DNA of 64,000 nucleotides, from the IMG/VR virus record IMGVR_UViG_3300037067_012889, positions 288,001 through 352,000 of that record; one strand, 5' to 3'. Below are positions 12,106 to 39,364 of this stretch, piece by piece; the stretch's first letter is position 1, and each line of letters starts with the position of its first letter. The DNA is from a virus. Lineage: Duplodnaviria > Caudoviricetes. The translations under genes and the position numbers were made by a program. Under the pieces are notes generated by a model that made no database searches, was not told the origin of the DNA, and saw nothing but the letters and a program-made list of their open reading frames with translations.

Positions 12106-13299
12106 TCATTTTGTTCGAAATTTATTTACATCTAAATATATTCCACACGGTTTCCATTGACACCAGCTTTTACCGATATTAATACGTACCGGAAATACTG
12201 GATCAGAATCTAATATTCCAGAAAACGGCCTACACATAATGTTGGCAACTTCCCGTATTGTCGATTTTAATACATTTTTACTACAAGCAAGTGTTATAGA
12301 GTCGTGTGTTTCAGCCAGCAATCTATAATCTGATTCCCAGACCTTTCTAATAACTATTTGCATCGCGTGTGCTATAGATCCCTGCATTGTCGCATTGAAA
12401 GCAGACCGTGGCTTTTCAGCATTAAAAAATTCCCTACCTAGAATGCTAAAAATTGGCTCTCCATTATCCATCTTCTCTTTCTGAATAATTATCCATTCAC
12501 GCAGCTCTGGGAACATTTGAAGTATCGGATGATCAATGTCAATTGCATTAATAGCACGCAGCAGCATGACCTTACAATCTTTTCTGGGCACTTCAAGTTT
12601 TTCAGATATCTTCATATATGGATCGTGATTTATTGATATATCATTCAATTCTTTATCACCACTCAATATTGCAGCGATACGTATATCTGCCGCTCTCCAA
12701 TCGAAATTAACAAACAAATCAGATTGATCGCCGTGCGGATCTGATATAAAATCACTTGCCGATGTGCCTTGAAGATTAAAACCGGTATTCTTGCTTCTTC
12801 CACTGACTGTTCGATGTGTCCACTTAGGAAATTTGTGCAGACCTCCAACTAATATGCCCTGTCGTTCAAGACTCTCATAAACAACAGAAGCATTAGCAGC
12901 TATATTATGCCATATTTTAATTTTCTGACTTTGCAACTCAGCAAGCATGCTATTGATTACAAGCGACGCCTCCTCTAATGTAGTGGACGTCGTTTTAGGA
13001 AATGGTAAGAAGACGTCGCATATATTTAATCGCTCCTTAGGAAGCGAAAAGTTGAAGCCAGTCAATACAGATTTAAAGTCGTTTGTAACGATCGTTTTAT
13101 CGCACAACAACGACCGTTCAATCCATTGGCATATCTTACCAGATGATCGGTGGATATCATATATTGACTTGCCGGTACCAGAGATATAAAGTGGTATTAT
13201 TACGTCTTTACCCGATGTCCTAATACCGGCTACTAATGGTCTTAGTTTCTTATCAAATAATGCACAAAAATAGCTGATAGAATCATTAACTAAGACCAT
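12106..13299 (-). CDS. Small, divergent family A DNA polymerase (polymerase domain only)
   Basis: TVSGRSKNTGFNLQ (TxTGRLSS..PNLQ), motif A DWRAADIRIAAILSGD, AFNATMQGSIA, motif C ETHDSI. Confidence 0.8.
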   Translation of the reverse strand: MVLVNDSISYFCALFDKKLRPLVAGIRTSGKDVIIPLYISGTGKSIYDIHRSSGKICQWIERSLLCDKTIVTNDFKSVLTGFNFSLPKERLNICDVFLPFPKTTSTTLEEASLVINSMLAELQSQKIKIWHNIAANASVVYESLERQGILVGGLHKFPKWTHRTVSGRSKNTGFNLQGTSASDFISDPHGDQSDLFVNFDWRAADIRIAAILSGDKELNDISINHDPYMKISEKLEVPRKDCKVMLLRAINAIDIDHPILQMFPELREWIIIQKEKMDNGEPIFSILGREFFNAEKPRSAFNATMQGSIAHAMQIVIRKVWESDYRLLAETHDSITLACSKNVLKSTIREVANIMCRPFSGILDSDPVFPVRINIGKSWCQWKPCGIYLDVNKFRTK

Positions 13300-14147: not shown

Positions 14148-15560
14148 TTATTCTATCTCAGCCATGCCCATTCTACCATAAAATACATTGGCTGTGACGG
14201 AGACAAATTTTGGTCCATTACGATTCTTAGCTATCCAAAATCTAATTATAGACGGGATGTCTTTCTCAGCATCACCTATTTTATACTCATCCTCAGTTTG
14301 ATTTAAACTTACCACATAATCAACTGGCATAGCCTTGCCGAAACTCTCTGCCGCTTTATCTAAGTCGATATGCGCCTGCACGGCCTGTGCACCAGGCGCA
14401 GCATTACCGGCATTGCCATTTTTCACACCACCACGATTCGTCTGTGTCGCAGAATAAACAAGCACATTTTCATTCTTCGCCAAACCACGCATTTCAGTAG
14501 CTACACTTTTTTGTCTTGTGTAATCACCATCATTATTATAACTATGGCGGCTTTGCATCAATTCCAAATAATCAAGAACAACTACCTTAGGTATCCAGCC
14601 TTTAATTTTTCGGTTTGTCTCGATAATGCCATAAATGTTATTAACACTACATTCATCTGGCGGTAACTCATAAATAACGAAATCACCGACTTTACCTTTG
14701 TCGGCCTTGATAATACCTCGTACAGCAGACTGTGTACTACGAATCGATTCTTGATCAGCTTCTGATAACTTATCAATATTGGCTCGTGCGAATTTTCGAA
14801 TAGCTTTTTTAGACATACAACTCGCTAAGCGTATCGCCGTCTTATATGCAGAAAGCTCAAACGTCACAAACAAGACATTATGACCTTGCAACATAGCAGC
14901 ATGTGCCATGTTAATTAATGTCAACGTCTTACCAACACCTGTCGGGGCTAAGACTATAAGAACTTCTCCGGGTGATGGGCCACCTTCATTTAATGGAGCA
15001 TCAAGACCTGGAAATCCGGTGCTAATATGCTCTATCGCAGTATCGGCGAAGATCTCATCTATCTGATCGAAAAACCAAAACCCTTGATTACCAATCGTAT
15101 TGATGCTAGAAGCAGAATCAACAATCTTACGTAAAAACTCATGATCACCTCGTTGATGTGCTGCGATAGCATCGTCAGAATACAATTGTGCATATGATTG
15201 ATGCTCTACCCAATCGCGTAACGTTTGCCGTAATATCGGCGCTTCTCTAGGATTCGATTGTCTATCGACAACACTCAATATTTCTTCATATGGATCGTCA
15301 ACAGTCAGTTGTTTCGCAAGACGATCATGCAGCAATGGGCGAGATGGTATCACACCGAATTTGTCAAAATCTTGTTTTAATGCCGCTACGACATACTTTA
15401 CTTCTGGCCTTGTAAATAAATCTGCAGTAATAAATTTCGATGTAGGAATATATAATTCTGGAAAATCTAGAATTAACGATATGATACCAGCTTCCATATT
15501 TGGGCCAAATGGCGAATCGACAGAACTAGATTCTTGTTCTGTCTGCAGAGCCTCGATCAT
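14148..15560 (-). CDS. dnaB: Replicative DnaB-like helicase (T4 gp41-like)
   Basis: STGFPGLD, LAPTGVGKT, FVTFELS, VVVLDYLELM, SATQTNR, AESFGK, IAKNRNG. Confidence 0.9.
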   Translation of the reverse strand: MIEALQTEQESSSVDSPFGPNMEAGIISLILDFPELYIPTSKFITADLFTRPEVKYVVAALKQDFDKFGVIPSRPLLHDRLAKQLTVDDPYEEILSVVDRQSNPREAPILRQTLRDWVEHQSYAQLYSDDAIAAHQRGDHEFLRKIVDSASSINTIGNQGFWFFDQIDEIFADTAIEHISTGFPGLDAPLNEGGPSPGEVLIVLAPTGVGKTLTLINMAHAAMLQGHNVLFVTFELSAYKTAIRLASCMSKKAIRKFARANIDKLSEADQESIRSTQSAVRGIIKADKGKVGDFVIYELPPDECSVNNIYGIIETNRKIKGWIPKVVVLDYLELMQSRHSYNNDGDYTRQKSVATEMRGLAKNENVLVYSATQTNRGGVKNGNAGNAAPGAQAVQAHIDLDKAAESFGKAMPVDYVVSLNQTEDEYKIGDAEKDIPSIIRFWIAKNRNGPKFVSVTANVFYGRMGMAEIE

Positions 15561-26684: not shown

Positions 26685-32600
<5,916 letters not shown>

Positions 32601-32738
32601 CTACAAATTATACATCGATAAGAATTTCGATGTTGCCGATCTAGAAGCCAACAACTAAAATTTGTTTTCTAACCAATAGCTGTTAGTATTATTTGATGGT
32701 ATATAGCAATATATCTATTAGAGCAATCTGGGCAGAGA

Positions 32739-35549
32739 TCATTCGGCCTCGGATTGTACCTTGGACCAAGCAGCTTTGGTCCATAGAGGTTCGATAACAG
32801 TTCCTCTCTTTAGAACAAAACTATTGCGATCTGGATCGTACGTAACCCTTACTCTGATACCCCTATCTGGCTGTAATAACTTTTTAGTCTGATTTCTAAT
32901 GTCTTGCTCCCAAACAAGTATCAAACAGGTCTTGCGGCCATCTGAAACTGTCATACGAAGCATGTCAGAACCTTTTTTAGTCTTGGCGTACATGACCTCC
33001 ACTATTACGCCTTCCAAACAATCATTAATTTTCGATTTATCAACAGTATGATCACCACTAACTTTATATAGATCAATAGGAGAGTGCCAATGATATCCTA
33101 AAAATTGCTTCTCGAACTGCAACACTCTAGAAAATTCATAATCATCCTGATACAGAGACATAATATCTTCACGAGTAGCCTTTATAGTAGGACGCCAATT
33201 TTCCATTTTCTTCGGAATCTTGCGCTTTGGAAACTGCCGCTTGAATTCGACTATTTGACGCTCTCGCTCAACCAAGATTGTCGCCTCAGTCCAATTAGCA
33301 TTGGCTATAAGGCGACGCATATTGCAATCTTTTAATATCTTGACCGGATAGCTGAATGTTTTTAATTTTGGCTTAGTTTCTAATTGTTTAGCTTTCGATG
33401 CTGCCAGCTCGGCTTGTGCCTGTTCATCAATATTGTCAAATTCAAAATCTTCAACTGCACCGGAACCATAAGCGTGCAAATACCACATCCACGTAGCTCT
33501 CTTATTGGGATGTAGTCGCGAAAATGCACCAAGTTTGATAAGACGCTCGAAAAGAATCTTGCTTTTACCTTTTTTGGTGATAAAATCATCTATATCGGTA
33601 TATTCGTTGCCGCCAACCTCGTCAATAAAACTATCAGCAGCTTTATCTCCTATTTTCTTCAAGCTTGTCAAACCAAGTGCGATATGCTTATTAACATTTG
33701 GACCAGAATGTGCAGTAGGCTTAGATGTTAATTTCTTTATATCAATTTCACCAAATTCGATACCTTCACCACGAGCCGCAGACATGTATCGTTCTAGAGC
33801 CTTTTGATCACATAGGCCCATTACACTGGCCCACCACTCCTCAGGATAATGAGCTTTAAGCCATAAACAACGATAAGCCCATAGGCAATAGCAGATAGCA
33901 TGGCTTAAATTGAAGGCATATCGACCAAACGTTTCCATCTTATCCCAATATTCATGTGCCTTCGATTCACCTATCTTTTTACTAGCGCCTACTATCCAAT
34001 GTTCTCTAACAGGTTTCAACTTATCCTTCCATTTCTTGGCCACCGCTTTTCTAGCATCCTGTGATTCCGGCCCTGTAAATCCGGCAACCCTCTGCCAAAT
34101 GGAAGTTAACTGCTCTTGGAACACAATTACACCACTAGTCGGCTTTAATATTTCGATAATGGCCTCGTGTTCACCCCTAGACCAACTATTTGCTACATCA
34201 TCTCGATTTTTAACATAATCCGGAATGCTTTGCATTGGTCCTGGGTGACCCATCGCATTGAAAATCAATAAGTCGTGAAAGCTCTTAACGCCGTTCGACA
34301 ATGTTCTCTTAGCTAGTTCTGTGTCGAACTGAAAAATGCTGTCTGTTAATGACTCGTTGGCGAGTTTCAATGCTGCTCGATCGTTGAGCGATATAGATAT
34401 TTTCTTACCGTCTTCCCAATAGTAACCAGCAATATCGTCATTCGGATCAGATTCATCCCATCCTTCCAATTGATCGCCGAAAGATATGCCATGATTCTCT
34501 CTAATCATTTCACAGCACGTCTTAATATATGCTAAATTCTTTAGACCAAGCATGTCCCACTTCAAATAGCCAAATTTCGATAACTGTGTGCTATGGCCCT
34601 CTGTCCAAATGCTAACCCACTGATCTGTTTTGCTATCGTATTGCATCGGTACGTTGCCAAATAGATCGCGGTCGGCGATAATGATACCGCCAGCATGTTT
34701 ACCAGCATGCTTCAAACGACCAACCAATCGAATAGCTGTATCGATGACCTGCCTGTGTTTTTCTTTGCTTTCTGATATGAATTTTTCTATTTCTGGATAA
34801 TCACGCAAAATCATTGCGATGGTCGGCGTATCTGTATCGCCACTGCCACATTTAGGGCATTTTAATTCTTTGTGCTTAAAACCGCATTCTTTTTCTGGAC
34901 CGTCTCCATCACGAACACGGCCCTTGCATGCACCTAAACCTCCCTCACGCATAGTATTGACATCGTCTGGAAGGTCTTTTGTTAATACAACAGCTCTATT
35001 CTTAATTCCAACACCATGTTGGCTGCCGCCCTCTAACTTATCTAGCCCGAGAGCTGTATATGCGTCTGCGATAGCCTGCTTAAAAAGATAGGTCTGCCAA
35101 GTACCGACACTAGCCACATTGTTCTCACCATATCGCTCGGCAGCATAGCTTTTTATTTTATTTCTGGCTTCTGGTAGACAGTCGATATCGATATCTGGTT
35201 TATCGTCGTCTTGACGAATATCGGCTGGTAGCTTTCCAGTCTTTTTTATAATTGCTTGCACATCGTCATACTTTGCACTAAGCATCAGAGGTCCATCTCT
35301 ATGTGCAATTGGATCTTTATCAGCGTCACCAACAAATCGCTTGAGCAGCCATGGTAACAAGAGTTGATTTGGATTTTTATCGTACTTCCTACCAGACTCC
35401 ATCAAATCTTCGTAATACCTTTGGGCTCCTTGCATACGAACTTGGTCTAGCTCAAAATTTAGCCGTTTGGTGTAGATTTCAGGTAACCCTAACTTTTTGA
35501 TACGTCCGTGCGCCGCTGCAGCAAGAGTCTCAAAACTATACTTTCCCAT
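32739..35549 (-). CDS. dnaE: DNA polymerase III alpha (DnaE), C-terminal part: catalytic Asp triad, fingers, HhH, OB
   Basis: KPDIDID, GKHAGGIII, LKWDMLGL, IFQF, VIVFQEQL, YAFNLSHA..Y, LKAHYP, GLTSLKKIG, EKQFLG. Confidence 0.9.
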   Translation of the reverse strand: MGKYSFETLAAAAHGRIKKLGLPEIYTKRLNFELDQVRMQGAQRYYEDLMESGRKYDKNPNQLLLPWLLKRFVGDADKDPIAHRDGPLMLSAKYDDVQAIIKKTGKLPADIRQDDDKPDIDIDCLPEARNKIKSYAAERYGENNVASVGTWQTYLFKQAIADAYTALGLDKLEGGSQHGVGIKNRAVVLTKDLPDDVNTMREGGLGACKGRVRDGDGPEKECGFKHKELKCPKCGSGDTDTPTIAMILRDYPEIEKFISESKEKHRQVIDTAIRLVGRLKHAGKHAGGIIIADRDLFGNVPMQYDSKTDQWVSIWTEGHSTQLSKFGYLKWDMLGLKNLAYIKTCCEMIRENHGISFGDQLEGWDESDPNDDIAGYYWEDGKKISISLNDRAALKLANESLTDSIFQFDTELAKRTLSNGVKSFHDLLIFNAMGHPGPMQSIPDYVKNRDDVANSWSRGEHEAIIEILKPTSGVIVFQEQLTSIWQRVAGFTGPESQDARKAVAKKWKDKLKPVREHWIVGASKKIGESKAHEYWDKMETFGRYAFNLSHAICYCLWAYRCLWLKAHYPEEWWASVMGLCDQKALERYMSAARGEGIEFGEIDIKKLTSKPTAHSGPNVNKHIALGLTSLKKIGDKAADSFIDEVGGNEYTDIDDFITKKGKSKILFERLIKLGAFSRLHPNKRATWMWYLHAYGSGAVEDFEFDNIDEQAQAELAASKAKQLETKPKLKTFSYPVKILKDCNMRRLIANANWTEATILVERERQIVEFKRQFPKRKIPKKMENWRPTIKATREDIMSLYQDDYEFSRVLQFEKQFLGYHWHSPIDLYKVSGDHTVDKSKINDCLEGVIVEVMYAKTKKGSDMLRMTVSDGRKTCLILVWEQDIRNQTKKLLQPDRGIRVRVTYDPDRNSFVLKRGTVIEPLWTKAAWSKVQSEAE

Positions 35550-35567
35550 AATATTTCTGTTTTCAAA

Positions 35568-36059
35568 TCACTTGATAATTGTTCCACTATCACTACCAAC
35601 TGTAGTTTCGGCAGCTGTCTTTGCCACGTCTAAAATCTGCTGCATTTGTTCTTTTTCACCAATCTGAACAGTTAAATCAGTGAAAAGATCAGCTTTCTCA
35701 CGTAAACGACGTATCAATTCGGCGTTCTTCTTTGGTTCTATTTTGTACTTATCACCATCACGCTCCATTAGTTGCGCCACATATGGTGTTACAAACAAAA
35801 CAACCGGACTTTTGCGCAATTGTAATACTGGATGTGCCTTTATACTCATCAAACCAAGTATCGCCGCTTTAATATCACACTGCGGCTTAGTACTGTCACC
35901 TACCGGTTCACTAATTACTCTGATAGCTTCTCGTCCATGGCTATCGATATGCTGTAGCCTAGCGGTAGCAGCACCACGCTGCTCTGGCTTGCCATTATCG
36001 ACACTAAAACCACATGCAAATATTTCAATCTTCATTTCATTTTCCAAGTTTCTTGCCAT
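35568..36059 (-). CDS. RNase H-like protein with degenerate catalytic residues
   Basis: IEIFACGFS, STKPQCDIKAAILGL, VTPYVAQ, KKNAELIRRL align with RNase HI FTDG / TNNRMELMAAI / TDSQYV / KNVDLWQRL. Confidence 0.6.
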   Translation of the reverse strand: MARNLENEMKIEIFACGFSVDNGKPEQRGAATARLQHIDSHGREAIRVISEPVGDSTKPQCDIKAAILGLMSIKAHPVLQLRKSPVVLFVTPYVAQLMERDGDKYKIEPKKNAELIRRLREKADLFTDLTVQIGEKEQMQQILDVAKTAAETTVGSDSGTIIK

Positions 36060-36456
36060 TACCGTCAGTGAGTTGCGGATATTCTTTATGTGTAATATCT
36101 GCTAAACCGGTAATGGCTATACCAAGCACTTTAAAAAACACTTCACAACGACTACCTATATCAAGCGATTCCGTCACTTTCAGACAGTCAGTTATGCTTT
36201 GTAAACAAGCATCTGATGATGGACGCAATCCATCTAATCTATCCTTTATTCCAAGTATTGAGGCTTCAAGGATAGCAGACGTAAAATTGTCCAGACTTCT
36301 AGCTTGTAATTCTTCTCCGGGCGGTAGGGTGCCAATAAATTCAACAAAGCTCAAACATAACTGACAAGTTAATGGTCGAGGTTCACCAATTAACAGCAGA
36401 TAATCTGATACCGCCGCATGCAATGATCGAAGAGATTCAGTATACACGTTCTTCAT
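36037..36456 (-). CDS. Hypothetical protein
   Basis: 139-aa ORF coupled to the dnaE N-part stop. Confidence 0.6.
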   Translation of the reverse strand: MKNVYTESLRSLHAAVSDYLLLIGEPRPLTCQLCLSFVEFIGTLPPGEELQARSLDNFTSAILEASILGIKDRLDGLRPSSDACLQSITDCLKVTESLDIGSRCEVFFKVLGIAITGLADITHKEYPQLTDGNGKKLGK

Positions 36457-36457
36457 A

Positions 36458-37900
36458 TTAGTCTATTTTGGTTTTTAGCATGTATCCGCCACGAGAGCTT
36501 GCTAGAAATCGATCAAACGACATGCCCCATGCTAGTGAATTTAAAGTATGGATACCAAGAAGATGGCATACAAATGATCCTGCGGCCGAACCACGTGGTC
36601 CAAACGGCCAACCTTGCTTTCTTCCCCATTGAATTAAATCTCTCGTTATCAAGAAATAACTAGAAAATCCTTTGTCGATAAATCTATTAAGCTCAATTTC
36701 GACCTGCTCCGCATATGTCACTTCACGTCCATCCGAAGACCATTTTCTTGTGTCTTTATCCCATCCACGCTTTCTAAGCTCTGCATATACAATTTCAGCT
36801 AATTTCTTATTAGCATCGACTCCCTTCTCAATATCGGACCATTTTGGAATCTTTGGGGAAGTATCCGGAGCAGGTTTTTCACATCGTTCCGCTATCAACA
36901 ATGTATTATCACACAATTCCTCGAATTTAGCATTATCTATCTTATGCGAATAGCCGCGATTTTTAAAAGTCGCCCACAAATCACCCCGTGACTTCAAATA
37001 TTGTTCTTCACTTTGAGATTGAAACATATTTGGGTCGTAAATGCTAGTCTTTTGATCGACTGCCATCATAACTCTTTGTAAGTAAGAGTCTTCACGTATA
37101 AGATAATGAGCATCGTTAGCGATAACCGGCTTAATACCGTACATATCAGCCAACTCAATTAACTTGCGAAATACTCTAACATCATGCACCGCAACATTAT
37201 TTTCTAACAATCCAGTATCCGGCAGACACGGCATTTGCACTTCCATAAAGAAGTCTTCGCCAAAAACCTCTTTGAATTTTTTAATATATTGCACGGCTGT
37301 CAGATCACGATCAGCAACACGTGGATGCGGTTTTTTCTCCCTTATTAAATTGTCAATATCTAACCTAATCTCATATGCAACTGGCCCATTTACGCATCCA
37401 GATAATACGATTAAACCTTCTTTATACTCACACAGCTTCTCTAACCAGATGCGCGGTTTACGATAAAAACCGAATTTGTTCGCTAATGTCGTTAACTTAA
37501 TTAAATTGGCGACACCAGTAGCATTCTTACAAAGAATGGTCATGTGTCGATTGCGCCCAATGCGCTGTTTAAGATCGACATCCATACCCTTCTGTTTAAC
37601 ACCCTGTGTATCTAGATCTCTACGCAGTTGCTCGTAGTCATTGAAATATATTTCACAACCCGGAATATATTTCAATCCTCGCTTCTTAAAAGCGAAGTAC
37701 ATATCTGGAAAGGACGCCATATGCCCATGCTCTGTAGCCGCCATTGCCGGGAATCCGGACTGAATACATGCATCGGCATATTGTTCTGCTGACGGAACAC
37801 CATCTAGAGACGACGATAAGCTGTGCACATGAAGATGTACGAACTCTTTTGGTCCAGTATATTGCGTTGATTCAACTTCTTCTTGCATAATTGTGTTCAA
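36458..37900 (-). CDS. dnaE: DNA polymerase III alpha (DnaE), N-terminal part: PHP domain plus the GRGS region
   Basis: FVHLHVHSLSSSLDG, ATEHG, PGCEIY, LSGCVNG, ANDAHY, GFSSYFLI, GPRGSAAGS, FDRFL. Confidence 0.9.
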   Translation of the reverse strand: MNTIMQEEVESTQYTGPKEFVHLHVHSLSSSLDGVPSAEQYADACIQSGFPAMAATEHGHMASFPDMYFAFKKRGLKYIPGCEIYFNDYEQLRRDLDTQGVKQKGMDVDLKQRIGRNRHMTILCKNATGVANLIKLTTLANKFGFYRKPRIWLEKLCEYKEGLIVLSGCVNGPVAYEIRLDIDNLIREKKPHPRVADRDLTAVQYIKKFKEVFGEDFFMEVQMPCLPDTGLLENNVAVHDVRVFRKLIELADMYGIKPVIANDAHYLIREDSYLQRVMMAVDQKTSIYDPNMFQSQSEEQYLKSRGDLWATFKNRGYSHKIDNAKFEELCDNTLLIAERCEKPAPDTSPKIPKWSDIEKGVDANKKLAEIVYAELRKRGWDKDTRKWSSDGREVTYAEQVEIELNRFIDKGFSSYFLITRDLIQWGRKQGWPFGPRGSAAGSFVCHLLGIHTLNSLAWGMSFDRFLASSRGGYMLKTKID

Positions 37901-39045
37901 GATGTCTCAGCCGCTATGAGGCAACCCTCACTAACAGCAAACAGCGGATCTTTACATCGCTTCACTTTATTAATGGCAAATGGTGGTTTTTCTTCTTGGA
38001 ATAGCTGGGCTACCATTCCTTCGAAGCCAACCGGACACGATGTGCCACCGGCCATAAATACGTCGATGGGCTTATCCATTCGAGCGCTCGTTTCATTATC
38101 AACAAAACCTTGAACGATACCACGAATAACATTCTGAATAAGAATCCTGTAATGTAAAACAATATCTAGTTCAAGTCGAGTCGTATAATTTTGTGTAAGA
38201 TCGAGTTTCTCCTTCACACGACAAACCGTCGTTGGAGTTTCTGCGGATTTCTTATATAGCATGTTCGGATCATAGCCGTGCCGCTTAGCAACCTCAGAAT
38301 CAATCCAGTCGCCAGCACCGACCCAGCTAAATGAATAAATCTCATTGCCCCATAGAACATAACTAACTGTAACAGTACCAGCACCCCAAGAAATACCAAT
38401 ACCAGTCGCATCTGGCGTTTCTTTTAACACCAATGCGTGAGATTCCTTTATCGAGCTGGTTATAATTTTCGATTCAGTCTGATAGCCAGAAATAATTAAA
38501 TTAATAACTTGCTGATGGTAATCAATATTCATCGCATGATTAAGCGCCTTCGCCGTAGTGCAATAGCATAATTTAACTTCTGGATCAAATGTGCCAGCAT
38601 CATGCTCCGACATTGATAGTAAACCTTGGACAATACTAGATAGCACCATTAAAGCAGCTTCGTCAGCGGCAACACCACCTTCGGCCATTGGCCGTAACAA
38701 TGTACTGTTATGTGCATATGCTAATTCTTCTGCATCCTTGCCAAGCACATAAATTCCATCCTTGCCATCAAGATGGATCCACTTCGCTTGGCGTTTAGTA
38801 CCATCTGATCTCGTCTTATTTGGATCGTCGAGCATATTCTCTATGAATTTACTCGGTCGTGGGATAAGATAATAGCCGTTGATTTCTTTTAGAAAAACCA
38901 GTTTATTGTTGTGTCGAAATGATACAACTATATTCTTGGTCCCAATATCGATACCAATTGCATTCACTGCTGCTCTCCTAATTGTACAGTCATCACCCAA
39001 TCCAAATACAAAAGATGATTGCTCTAACTCATCATCATTGACCAC
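37897..39045 (-). CDS. Actin-like ATPase (MreB/ParM/FtsA superfamily); probable GTG start at 39045
   Basis: Phosphate-1 IGIDIGT, LLRPMAEG, IKESHA, phosphate-2 GISWGAGTV, GAGDWID, adenosine MAGGTS, DPLFAVSEG. Confidence 0.85.
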   Translation of the reverse strand: MVNDDELEQSSFVFGLGDDCTIRRAAVNAIGIDIGTKNIVVSFRHNNKLVFLKEINGYYLIPRPSKFIENMLDDPNKTRSDGTKRQAKWIHLDGKDGIYVLGKDAEELAYAHNSTLLRPMAEGGVAADEAALMVLSSIVQGLLSMSEHDAGTFDPEVKLCYCTTAKALNHAMNIDYHQQVINLIISGYQTESKIITSSIKESHALVLKETPDATGIGISWGAGTVTVSYVLWGNEIYSFSWVGAGDWIDSEVAKRHGYDPNMLYKKSAETPTTVCRVKEKLDLTQNYTTRLELDIVLHYRILIQNVIRGIVQGFVDNETSARMDKPIDVFMAGGTSCPVGFEGMVAQLFQEEKPPFAINKVKRCKDPLFAVSEGCLIAAETS

Positions 39046-39364
39046 GTTTAGTGACGACTTTTGTTCCGAATCCGCCTTTGGGGATGGGTGGTCGACCAAT
39101 TGATGGCGCAAGAGCTTCTGGGGGAAGATCTGGCGCATTGAGAAATGGAGTGGAAATAGGCTGCTCGGTGGCATTAACAGCTCGCGCTGCAATTCTTTGC
39201 TCTCCGGTATATGCTCCGGTGGCAGCTTTCGTAATCGGTCTTTCCATGTTGCGACTATCAAATGTTGTCCTAACAAATTCCTTGTAGATCAACAAGACCA
39301 ATCCAAGAGACACCAACGCAACGACCAGTGCTATTAACGCTACAAATAGCGCCGCGACATCCAT
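39035..39364 (-). CDS. Small membrane-anchored protein (N-terminal TM helix, Pro-rich tail)
   Basis: About 25 hydrophobic N-terminal residues; stop overlaps the actin-like gene start. Confidence 0.7.
   Translation of the reverse strand: MDVAALFVALIALVVALVSLGLVLLIYKEFVRTTFDSRNMERPITKAATGAYTGEQRIAARAVNATEQPISTPFLNAPDLPPEALAPSIGRPPIPKGGFGTKVVTKRGQ

Follow-up and report, generated by a model that had tools for sequence, protein, structure and literature searches.

A jumbo-phage DnaE polymerase encoded by two genes that divide its palm domain and active-site residues between them

In a 64,000-nucleotide stretch of viral DNA (called the window here; bases 288001-352000 of the 363,885-bp IMG/VR virus record IMGVR_UViG_3300037067_012889), the DNA polymerase DnaE is encoded by two separate genes, a dnaE N-part and a dnaE C-part, and we designated their products alphaN and alphaC. 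The record is rated complete by CheckV, and from this rating and its length it is that of a jumbo phage. In C-family polymerases and Pol-beta-like nucleotidyltransferases, the triphosphate is held by the GS loop and nearby Arg residues and the metals by three Asp, and the GS loop is a defining element of the Pol-beta-like nucleotidyltransferases. Because these two sets of residues sit on different chains in this phage, a composite active site is the simplest reading. We consider it reasonably likely that the two genes specify an obligate two-chain DnaE polymerase with such an active site, whose chains are never joined. Replicative C-family polymerases are textbook single-chain subunits, and the natural exceptions known so far either rely on inteins to join their pieces or belong to a minimal phage form that is only predicted. 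A complete DnaE cut through its nucleotidyltransferase core would thus be a natural experiment on the assembly of an active site from two chains.

Two genes that together make up one DnaE

The features of the two genes, in window coordinates, are as follows.

36458..37900, minus strand: dnaE N-part (alphaN), PHP domain and nucleotide-binding half of the palm (Pfam, AlphaFold2 (AF2) model, relatives)
36491..36715, minus strand: intact palm-start segment, alphaN residues 396-470 (Y..E-L helix, GFSSYF, GPRGSAAGS, FDRFL..R)
36461..36490, minus strand: alphaN tail GGYMLKTKID (SRGGYMLKTKID), the proposed dead counterpart of the ..SMPDxDxDF strand
32739..35549, minus strand: dnaE C-part (alphaC), pseudo palm-start module, metal-binding palm, thumb, fingers, HhH and OB fold (Pfam, AF2 model)
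35262..35510, minus strand: degenerate second palm start, alphaC residues 14-96 (hhalign, hidden Markov model (HMM) search, family alignment)
35181..35198, minus strand: catalytic strand PDIDID, alphaC residues 118-123 (invariant in 38 sequences)
34848..34928, minus strand: Cys4 zinc-ribbon-like insertion in the thumb, C208, C222, C231 and C234 (sequence, model)
34554..34562, minus strand: KWD (K330, D332; D332 is the third catalytic Asp) within KWDMLGL, alphaC residues 330-336 (family alignment)

The N-part is listed as an open reading frame (ORF) of 480 codons from a TTG at 37900 to the stop codon TAA at 36458-36460. Since the relatives begin at an ATG equivalent to residue 5 (M-x-E-V-E-P-S-Q-Y-T-G-P), translation probably starts at the ATG at 37886-37888. 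Pfam assigns residues 22-222 to the PHP domain (PF02811, E 1e-34) and residues 373-470 to model positions 9-98 of the palm family PF07733. The palm motifs are Y396..E403L404..GFSSYF, GPRGSAAGS (R436, G437 and S438, encoded by the RGS codons at 36587-36595) and FDRFL..R470, and the protein stops 10 residues past R470. The AF2 model of alphaN has a predicted local distance difference test score (pLDDT) of 87.7, and was superposed on residues 1-400 of E. coli Pol III alpha with a Z score of 33.4 over 389 residues and on residues 5-456 of Taq alpha with a Z score of 34.2. Among 34 N-parts that are 41-75% identical to that of the window, no variation occurs in the nine metal ligands of the PHP domain, in E403, L404, K410, Y415, F416, R436, G437, S438 and G441 or, towards the end of the chain, in R464, F465, R470, G471, G472 and L475. 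As its PHP domain keeps all nine metal ligands, alphaN is, judged from sequence, probably a proofreading exonuclease. In PHROGs, the N-part-like family phrog_7513 is listed as 'unknown function', and halves of this kind are easily misread as pseudogenes.

The C-part encodes 936 amino acids. PF07733 resumes in it at model position 99, near residue 114, and runs through position 260, and it is followed by the finger domain and HHH_6 (PF17657, E 1e-28; PF14579, E 3e-9). The AF2 model of alphaC (pLDDT 85.4) was matched to the alpha subunits of Taq, E. coli and M. tuberculosis with Z scores of 19-22. VIA aligns the model from residue 116 with E. coli alpha from residue 398/399 (Z about 21), and OB folds are matched by residues 833-928 (Z about 10). 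Because the model superposes from residue 116, D119/D121 correspond to E. coli D401/D403, and K330/D332 to K553/D555. P118, D119, D121, D123, H285, K330 and D332 are invariant among 38 C-parts that are 30-80% identical. The PDIDID strand itself has low pLDDT in the monomer model, with residues 123-126 below 50.

A reading made earlier from the nucleotide sequence alone (the sequence-only reading) had described these motifs in both parts, and each of them was found in its place. It had also pointed out a Cys4 insertion in the C-part, and the four cysteines, C208, C222, C231 and C234, are indeed there. In the model this insertion forms short strands with pLDDT of 72-87. All four Cys occur in 22 of the 38 family members, which form a long-linker subfamily that includes the window, while the short-linker subfamily is without the Cys4. 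The complementary loss of motifs that had been proposed holds across the family: RGS, R464 and R470 do not vary in the 34 N-parts, and D119, D121, D123, K330 and D332 do not vary in the 38 C-parts, which have no GS or FERF.

Taken together, the two proteins cover a DnaE from end to end. The alignment to E. coli and Taq DnaE that the sequence-only reading had called for assigns E. coli alpha residues 1-400 to the N-part, and the residues from 398 onward to the stretch of the C-part that starts at residue 116. In PHROG 405, which represents full-length DnaE, profile positions 34-439 are matched by the N-part and positions 441-1053 by residues 116-894 of the C-part. At the phage DnaE loci L074 and L085, which are unsplit here, the equivalent of N-part residue 470 is joined in frame to the equivalent of C-part residue 118 or so. 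The parts of the DnaE architecture, i.e., PHP, a GS-loop palm with three Asp, thumb, fingers, HhH and OB fold, are all present and shared between the two genes. They are not in a single chain, as the N-part and C-part are two ORFs, each with its own stop and start, with two genes in between. Compared with a normal DnaE, residues 471-480 of the N-part and residues 1-117 of the C-part are surplus.

Paralogy of the C-part head and conservation of the split

The sequence-only reading had regarded the head of the C-part as a second, degenerate copy of the palm start. In this module, Y26, R29, E33, Q40 and G41 are present, NPN stands in place of RGS and LLPWLL in place of the GS helix, and DPI is kept but FERF is absent. 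R29, E33, Q40, G41 and P80 are invariant in the heads of the 38 C-parts, N59 is nearly so at the position of the GS loop, and GS or FERF was found in the module of none of the 38. In the AF2 monomer model, the module takes up a well-defined fold (pLDDT 76-92).

The resemblance is too faint for simple comparisons. BLASTP between the N-part and C-part was not significant (E 0.63), though its best match was the predicted pairing of residues 396-428 with 26-55. Pfam gave no match to the isolated first 120 amino acids of the C-part, hhalign with only seven close orthologues gave E 0.15, and a profile of seven close orthologues of the module found nothing among the PDB sequences at E up to 10. When the C-part was compared by BLASTP with the full-length DnaE of OQ572403, the alignment ran through the head and paired EIYTKRLNFELDQVRMQGAQRYY with QVYVDRLNFELDIIIQMGFPGYF. 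When a profile of 38 heads was compared by hhalign with a profile of 34 N-part palm starts, the two were aligned over 83 columns in the predicted register with P 2e-5. Y26 was paired with Y396, E33-L34 with E403-L404, G41 with G411 and Y45 with Y415. NPNQLLLPWLL was aligned with RGSAAGSFVCHLL, and DPI with the DP(L) position.

An HMM search with the head profile against 1.84 billion representative proteins yielded 75 clusters (50% identity level, E up to 1e-3). The module lies at the extreme N-terminus in all of them except P0067, which was rejected as a chance match to a Listeria-Bacteroides repeat protein. No fused or unsplit form with an internal module was present among the 75 matches. The 11 long matches scanned with Pfam were all DnaE proteins without PHP, and the other long matches listed show the same head, then the PDIDxD strand. 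In P0029, P0035, P0044 and P0062, PF07733 is unbroken from model positions 2-16 to position 260, starting at residues 5-20. Because the palm family is continuous in these four proteins, the head of the C-part is the start of a palm domain. The degenerate second copy is thus borne out by the family-profile comparison, by the HMM search and by the colinear PF07733 matches, and at the level of sequence the C-part head and the N-part palm start are true paralogues.

The N-part has a surplus element of its own. The tail occurs in every family member, with the consensus SRGGyMLNVKM where canonical enzymes read ER.SMPDxDxDF. Like the catalytic strand, it alternates hydrophobic and polar residues, but Asn/Lys stand where Asp would be. 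In the monomer model the tail has pLDDT below 50, and when VIA was run with trimming off, residues 477-479 aligned to E. coli residues 399-401. Given this putative equivalence, the tail resembles a dead version of the Asp strand. The sequence-only reading had explained the overlap by duplication followed by reciprocal loss, and we likewise infer partial duplication first and reciprocal loss afterwards as the order of events. The conserved dead duplicates look like a record of such a fission, and intermediates of this kind are rarely preserved.

An alignment-based scan of IMG/VR for the locus yielded 76 loci; such an alignment was needed as the query, since the same scan with the single distant proteins P0035 and P0034 returned nothing. 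At 43 distinct loci the N-part has one common end point, and a head-bearing C-part follows 440-3200 bp downstream. The C-parts of these loci are 33-80% identical, and the contigs are up to 408 kb long and come from many samples. Five contigs have no N-part nearby. In four of the five it lies 10-55 kb away, once on the opposite strand, and the fifth contig is rated 23% complete. Contigs of sufficient length carry both halves. Because the halves are 10-55 kb apart in some genomes, they act as separate proteins, encoded by independent genes that travel together. The split is an old and widespread trait of the family and not a peculiarity of one genome. Among the INPHARED phages, megablast with the locus gave no match and tblastn gave only matches below 32% identity, so that no cultured relative was found there. 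At two more distant phage loci (L072:1186-3834 and L074:6581-9319), the PHP domain is on an ORF of its own, and the polymerase ORF begins with a palm start whose GS motif is intact; there is no overlap.

The dnaE genes form a cassette of four tightly packed minus-strand genes, in the order N-part, P0004, P0003, C-part. The N-part ends in ...FDRFLASSRGGYMLKTKID-TAA and the ATG of P0004 lies one base downstream; P0004 and P0003 overlap, and the C-part starts 18 bases past the stop of P0003. The two genes in the gap are as follows.

36037..36456, minus strand: P0004, helical protein of 139 amino acids (no Pfam, PHROG or Atlas lead)
35568..36059, minus strand: P0003, catalytically dead RNase HI homologue of 163 amino acids (Atlas structure, family profile)

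P0003-like and P0004-like genes were each detected between the halves at 36 of the 43 loci by iterated HMM searches of the intervening ORFs. The Atlas structure of P0003 resembles RNase H families with TM scores of 0.72-0.76, and its family profile matches E. coli RNase HI with E 1e-8. Catalysis by RNase HI depends on D10, E48, D70 and D134; the column of D10 is acidic in no member of the family and that of D70 in 2 of 29, and from this loss of acidic residues P0003 is a pseudo-RNase H, i.e., a homologue and not a competent enzyme. For P0004, no family, Atlas feature match or confident fold was obtained from Pfam, PHROG and Atlas. P0004 matched no nuclease family, and no free-standing homing endonuclease is present in the gap. 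From their conserved position, P0003 and P0004 are probably further subunits or assembly factors, and they point to accessory subunits of the phage replicase.

The substitution pattern and the assembly were also examined. Among close relatives, synonymous divergence (dS) is saturated throughout, and mean nonsynonymous divergence (dN) is 0.15 in the head core, 0.09 in its linker, 0.14 in the palm-thumb, 0.12 in the N-part palm start, 0.25 in P0003 and 0.34 in P0004. The low dN against saturated dS indicates purifying selection on all segments, including the module, P0003 and P0004. Misassembly had been named beforehand as a possible source of the arrangement. A Logan contig from a groundwater study (X1) bridges 35436-37900, and one from a wastewater study (X2) bridges 35234-36683, both with 0 differences from the window. 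As contigs of two studies bridge every junction without differences, misassembly is excluded, and the same gene order recurs at the 43 loci.

Proposed assembly of the active site and alternative explanations

In the mechanism that we favour, alphaN would contribute the GS loop together with both Arg of FDRF..R, and alphaC the three Asp and the Lys, so that the active site would form only upon association of alphaN and alphaC. Each chain keeps a conserved, catalytically dead copy of the element that the other supplies, namely the GS-less module in alphaC and the Asp-less strand-like tail in alphaN. These pseudo-elements would most likely be the docking interface, possibly by reciprocal exchange, and the dead duplicates may in this way serve as a natural, intein-free interface joining two chains. 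P0003 and P0004 would probably join them as further subunits or assembly factors.

Several points weigh against an obligate two-chain enzyme with a composite site. We infer the binding of alphaN to alphaC, and the obligate nature of the heterodimer, from the sequences. The short-linker C-parts are colinear with the whole PF07733 palm domain; they look like a complete palm, and there may therefore be a single place for two segments, the head and the live piece of alphaN. The VIA alignments of the alphaC model start at about residues 112-118, with a few at 78-92 out of sequence register, and the placement of the module is not readable from them. The genome contains a small, weakly PolA-like gene, and DnaE need not be its sole polymerase. 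The clamp DnaN (PF00712) was not detected in the genome search, which is no proof of its absence.

This possible steric clash would be lifted by reciprocal exchange, in which the live segment would enter the alphaC palm and the dead head would sit on the alphaN tail. The least confident parts of both monomer models are the junction elements, residues 467-480 of the N-part (below 50) and residues 111-130 of the C-part (55-60), and this fits weakly with elements that become ordered only in a complex. A more specific version of the two-chain reading is a reciprocal pseudo-domain clasp, with the live alphaN GS segment in the alphaC palm and the dead alphaC module paired with the dead alphaN strand. 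It would be an intein-free heterodimerisation device arisen by partial duplication and reciprocal degeneration, with the RNase HI homologue and the helical protein as dedicated replicase subunits in positions analogous to epsilon and theta. We put this version forward tentatively, as one that may well turn out to be wrong in part or as a whole. If it is true, the clasp would represent a natural and general route to gene fission through an enzyme active site, and the cassette would encode a four-protein phage Pol III core, which is undescribed.

The main rival explanation is that alphaC alone is the polymerase. Its own module would fill the fold, with the GS/Arg contacts dispensable or replaced, and alphaN would be a separate PHP proofreader whose palm start is a docking domain. 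The colinearity of the short-linker C-parts with a complete PF07733, the good folding of the module in the AF2 monomer (pLDDT 76-92) and the invariance of the PHP ligands in alphaN would all suit such a division of labour, and other phage DnaEs (L072, L074) are split simply between PHP and polymerase. However, these PHP-polymerase splits retain the GS motif in the polymerase chain. In the family studied here, alphaN shows strict invariance of the GS motif and of both Arg at 41-75% identity, which is unexpected for a mere docking piece. The GS loop is among the defining elements of the Pol-beta-like nucleotidyltransferases, and it is lost in every module. We therefore regard a polymerase made of alphaC alone as unlikely, although it deserves to be kept in mind.

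A different possibility is that the halves are joined after transcription or translation into one DnaE chain, by a cryptic split intein, an intron or translational bypass. In favour of such joining, cyanobacterial DnaE is assembled by trans-splicing (PMC2677866), and in relatives of the window this very gene contains split inteins accompanied by free-standing endonucleases. The short tail and the 117-amino-acid head also superficially recall atypical split inteins. The sequence-only reading had taken the split to be without an intein, unlike that of cyanobacterial DnaE, and the searches agree with it. No Hint or Intein Pfam signature was found on the N-part or C-part, and the same search finds them in the true inteins of the relatives. 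Because these are detected easily with the same tools, their absence from the alphaN/alphaC junction is meaningful. Intein blocks are lacking too: the tail of 10 amino acids has no Cys/Ser-led block A, and PDIDID is not preceded by His-Asn plus a nucleophile. An atypical split intein with a short N-terminal piece (Int-N) and a long C-terminal piece (Int-C) was considered and rejected, as the head is homologous to the DnaE palm and not to Hint, with no terminal His-Asn and no +1 nucleophile. Rfam scans of the window at 32000-38500 and of three relatives gave no intron, although divergent introns can be missed in such scans. The sole Rfam match was mir-202, at 24.8 bits against a gathering score of 51 bits, and it was discarded as a chance match. 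The gap is filled by the conserved coding sequence of two protein genes, and the halves are unlinked in some genomes. From these points, joining into one chain appears very improbable.

The last explanation, a decaying or misassembled locus in which dnaE was broken by insertion of a mobile element and left without a working polymerase, is strongly disfavoured and scarcely credible: the gene family of the relatives is heavily invaded by mobile elements, but the arrangement is identical in 43 distinct loci, contigs assembled in two studies span the junctions, every segment shows low dN and saturated dS, no catalytic residue varies, and the gap genes are conserved and are not endonucleases.

Known split polymerases, intein-broken relatives and genomic setting

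The closest precedent found for the two-chain DnaE comes from group 2.2 jumbo phages, for which Iyer, Anantharaman, Krishnan, Burroughs and Aravind predicted a minimal split Pol III alpha in 2021 (Viruses 13:63; PMC7824862). As described there, it is split between an NTP-binding subdomain at the N-terminus and the C-terminal Mg2+-/DNA-binding subdomain, and its reconstitution without inteins was predicted. By that description, to which the comparison is confined, the break is of the same kind as the one found here between FDRF..R470 and PDIDID. The form of Iyer et al. is described as having no PHP or other Pol III domains, with its genes distant from each other and a family B polymerase alongside. 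The phage analysed here has no PolB, and its conserved cassette of four genes encodes the full DnaE set (PHP, thumb, fingers, HhH and OB). The overlapping pseudo-copies, the dead RNase H and the helical partner are features of the present family that are not mentioned in the text consulted from that paper.

In cyanobacteria, the halves of DnaE carry Int-N and Int-C and are trans-spliced into one chain (Wu, Hu and Liu 1998; Caspi et al. 2003; summarised in PMC2677866). As in the cyanobacterial system, dnaE is present here as two genes whose products would have to combine into the replicative polymerase. Unlike in that system, the split site differs, intein motifs are absent and both halves contain additional sequence derived from DnaE. 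Dassa et al. (2009; NAR 37:2560; PMC2677866) described 'fractured genes', in which split inteins flank a free-standing homing endonuclease, with three DnaE loci included. The intein-broken dnaE genes of the relatives have exactly this arrangement, whereas the alphaN/alphaC junction has neither an intein nor an endonuclease in the gap. The surveys of bacterial and viral C-family polymerases that were searched mention only intein-split or frameshifted genes, and no description of a two-chain DnaE family of this kind was found in the open-access full-text literature searched.

Genes-in-pieces for replication enzymes, whose products reassemble non-covalently without splicing, occur in T4-like phages (for example Aeh1 nrdA and the split gp43 DNA polymerase); they arose when an endonuclease gene inserted itself, and a mobile endonuclease gene is present in the gap. 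To our knowledge, they have no conserved, duplicated and degenerate overlap.

The breaks of the intein type were surveyed in the relatives. In L008 (2-2223), L014, L017, L019, L032 and L062, the N-part is also broken at GPRG|S, inside the GS motif. At this break the upstream ORF runs into a Hint N-terminal piece, an endonuclease-like TnsA-like/DUF790 ORF of 380 amino acids comes next in another frame, and the Int-C of the following ORF ends in ...NGVFSSN|SAAGS. In L007 (2648-7497), L009, L010 (1529-6372) and many others, the C-part is broken near residues 414, 440, 479 and 548, and at least four further split-intein/endonuclease sites are present in the finger domain of this DnaE family. The order at these breaks is Int-N, then an endonuclease-type gap ORF, then Int-C, and the gap ORFs carry MTES_1575 restriction endonuclease (REase), DUF723, DUF4379 treble-clef or TnsA-like domains. 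Contiguous LAGLIDADG inteins are present in P0018, P0021, P0044 and P0079. At the loci L039, L042, L050, L051, L057 and L061 and in the proteins P0031, P0033, P0037 and P0076, an intein or Int-N follows directly after the DPI of the module, before PDIDID. Insertion of Int-N at this DPI site yields stand-alone proteins of about 130 amino acids that consist of the module and an Int-N piece. None of the intein-type breaks of the relatives is present in the genome of the window. As the DnaE family is a hotspot for split inteins and endonucleases, spliced and unspliced breaks can be compared side by side in one enzyme.

In the rest of the 364-kb genome no other copy of PF07733 was found, and PolB was not found in the genome. 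The PolA-like gene mentioned above is an ORF of 397 amino acids at 12106-13299 on the minus strand that matches PF00476 at positions 290-380, with 23.8 bits alone and 34.4 bits with its neighbours. A DnaB-like helicase is encoded at 14148-15560 on the minus strand (PF03796, E 1.7e-15), about 20 kb from the dnaE cassette. Promoter-like sites at the locus are as numerous as in the shuffled expectation. Terminator-like sites are somewhat in excess (9, against a shuffled expectation of 4.5 ± 2.0), and none of them marks a boundary between the four cassette genes.

The genes around the dnaE locus are nearly all on the minus strand, and include collagen-like fibres, glycosyltransferases and an actin-fold (Volactin-like) gene, which is the neighbour of the N-part.

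37897-39276, minus strand: actin-fold ATPase gene (Pfam Volactin, E 3e-43)

It shares 4 bases with the N-part when the latter is counted from its listed TTG start. In close relatives, too, this actin-fold neighbour is located upstream of the N-part, as ORFs of about 462-465 amino acids ending in ...LFAVAEGCLIAA.

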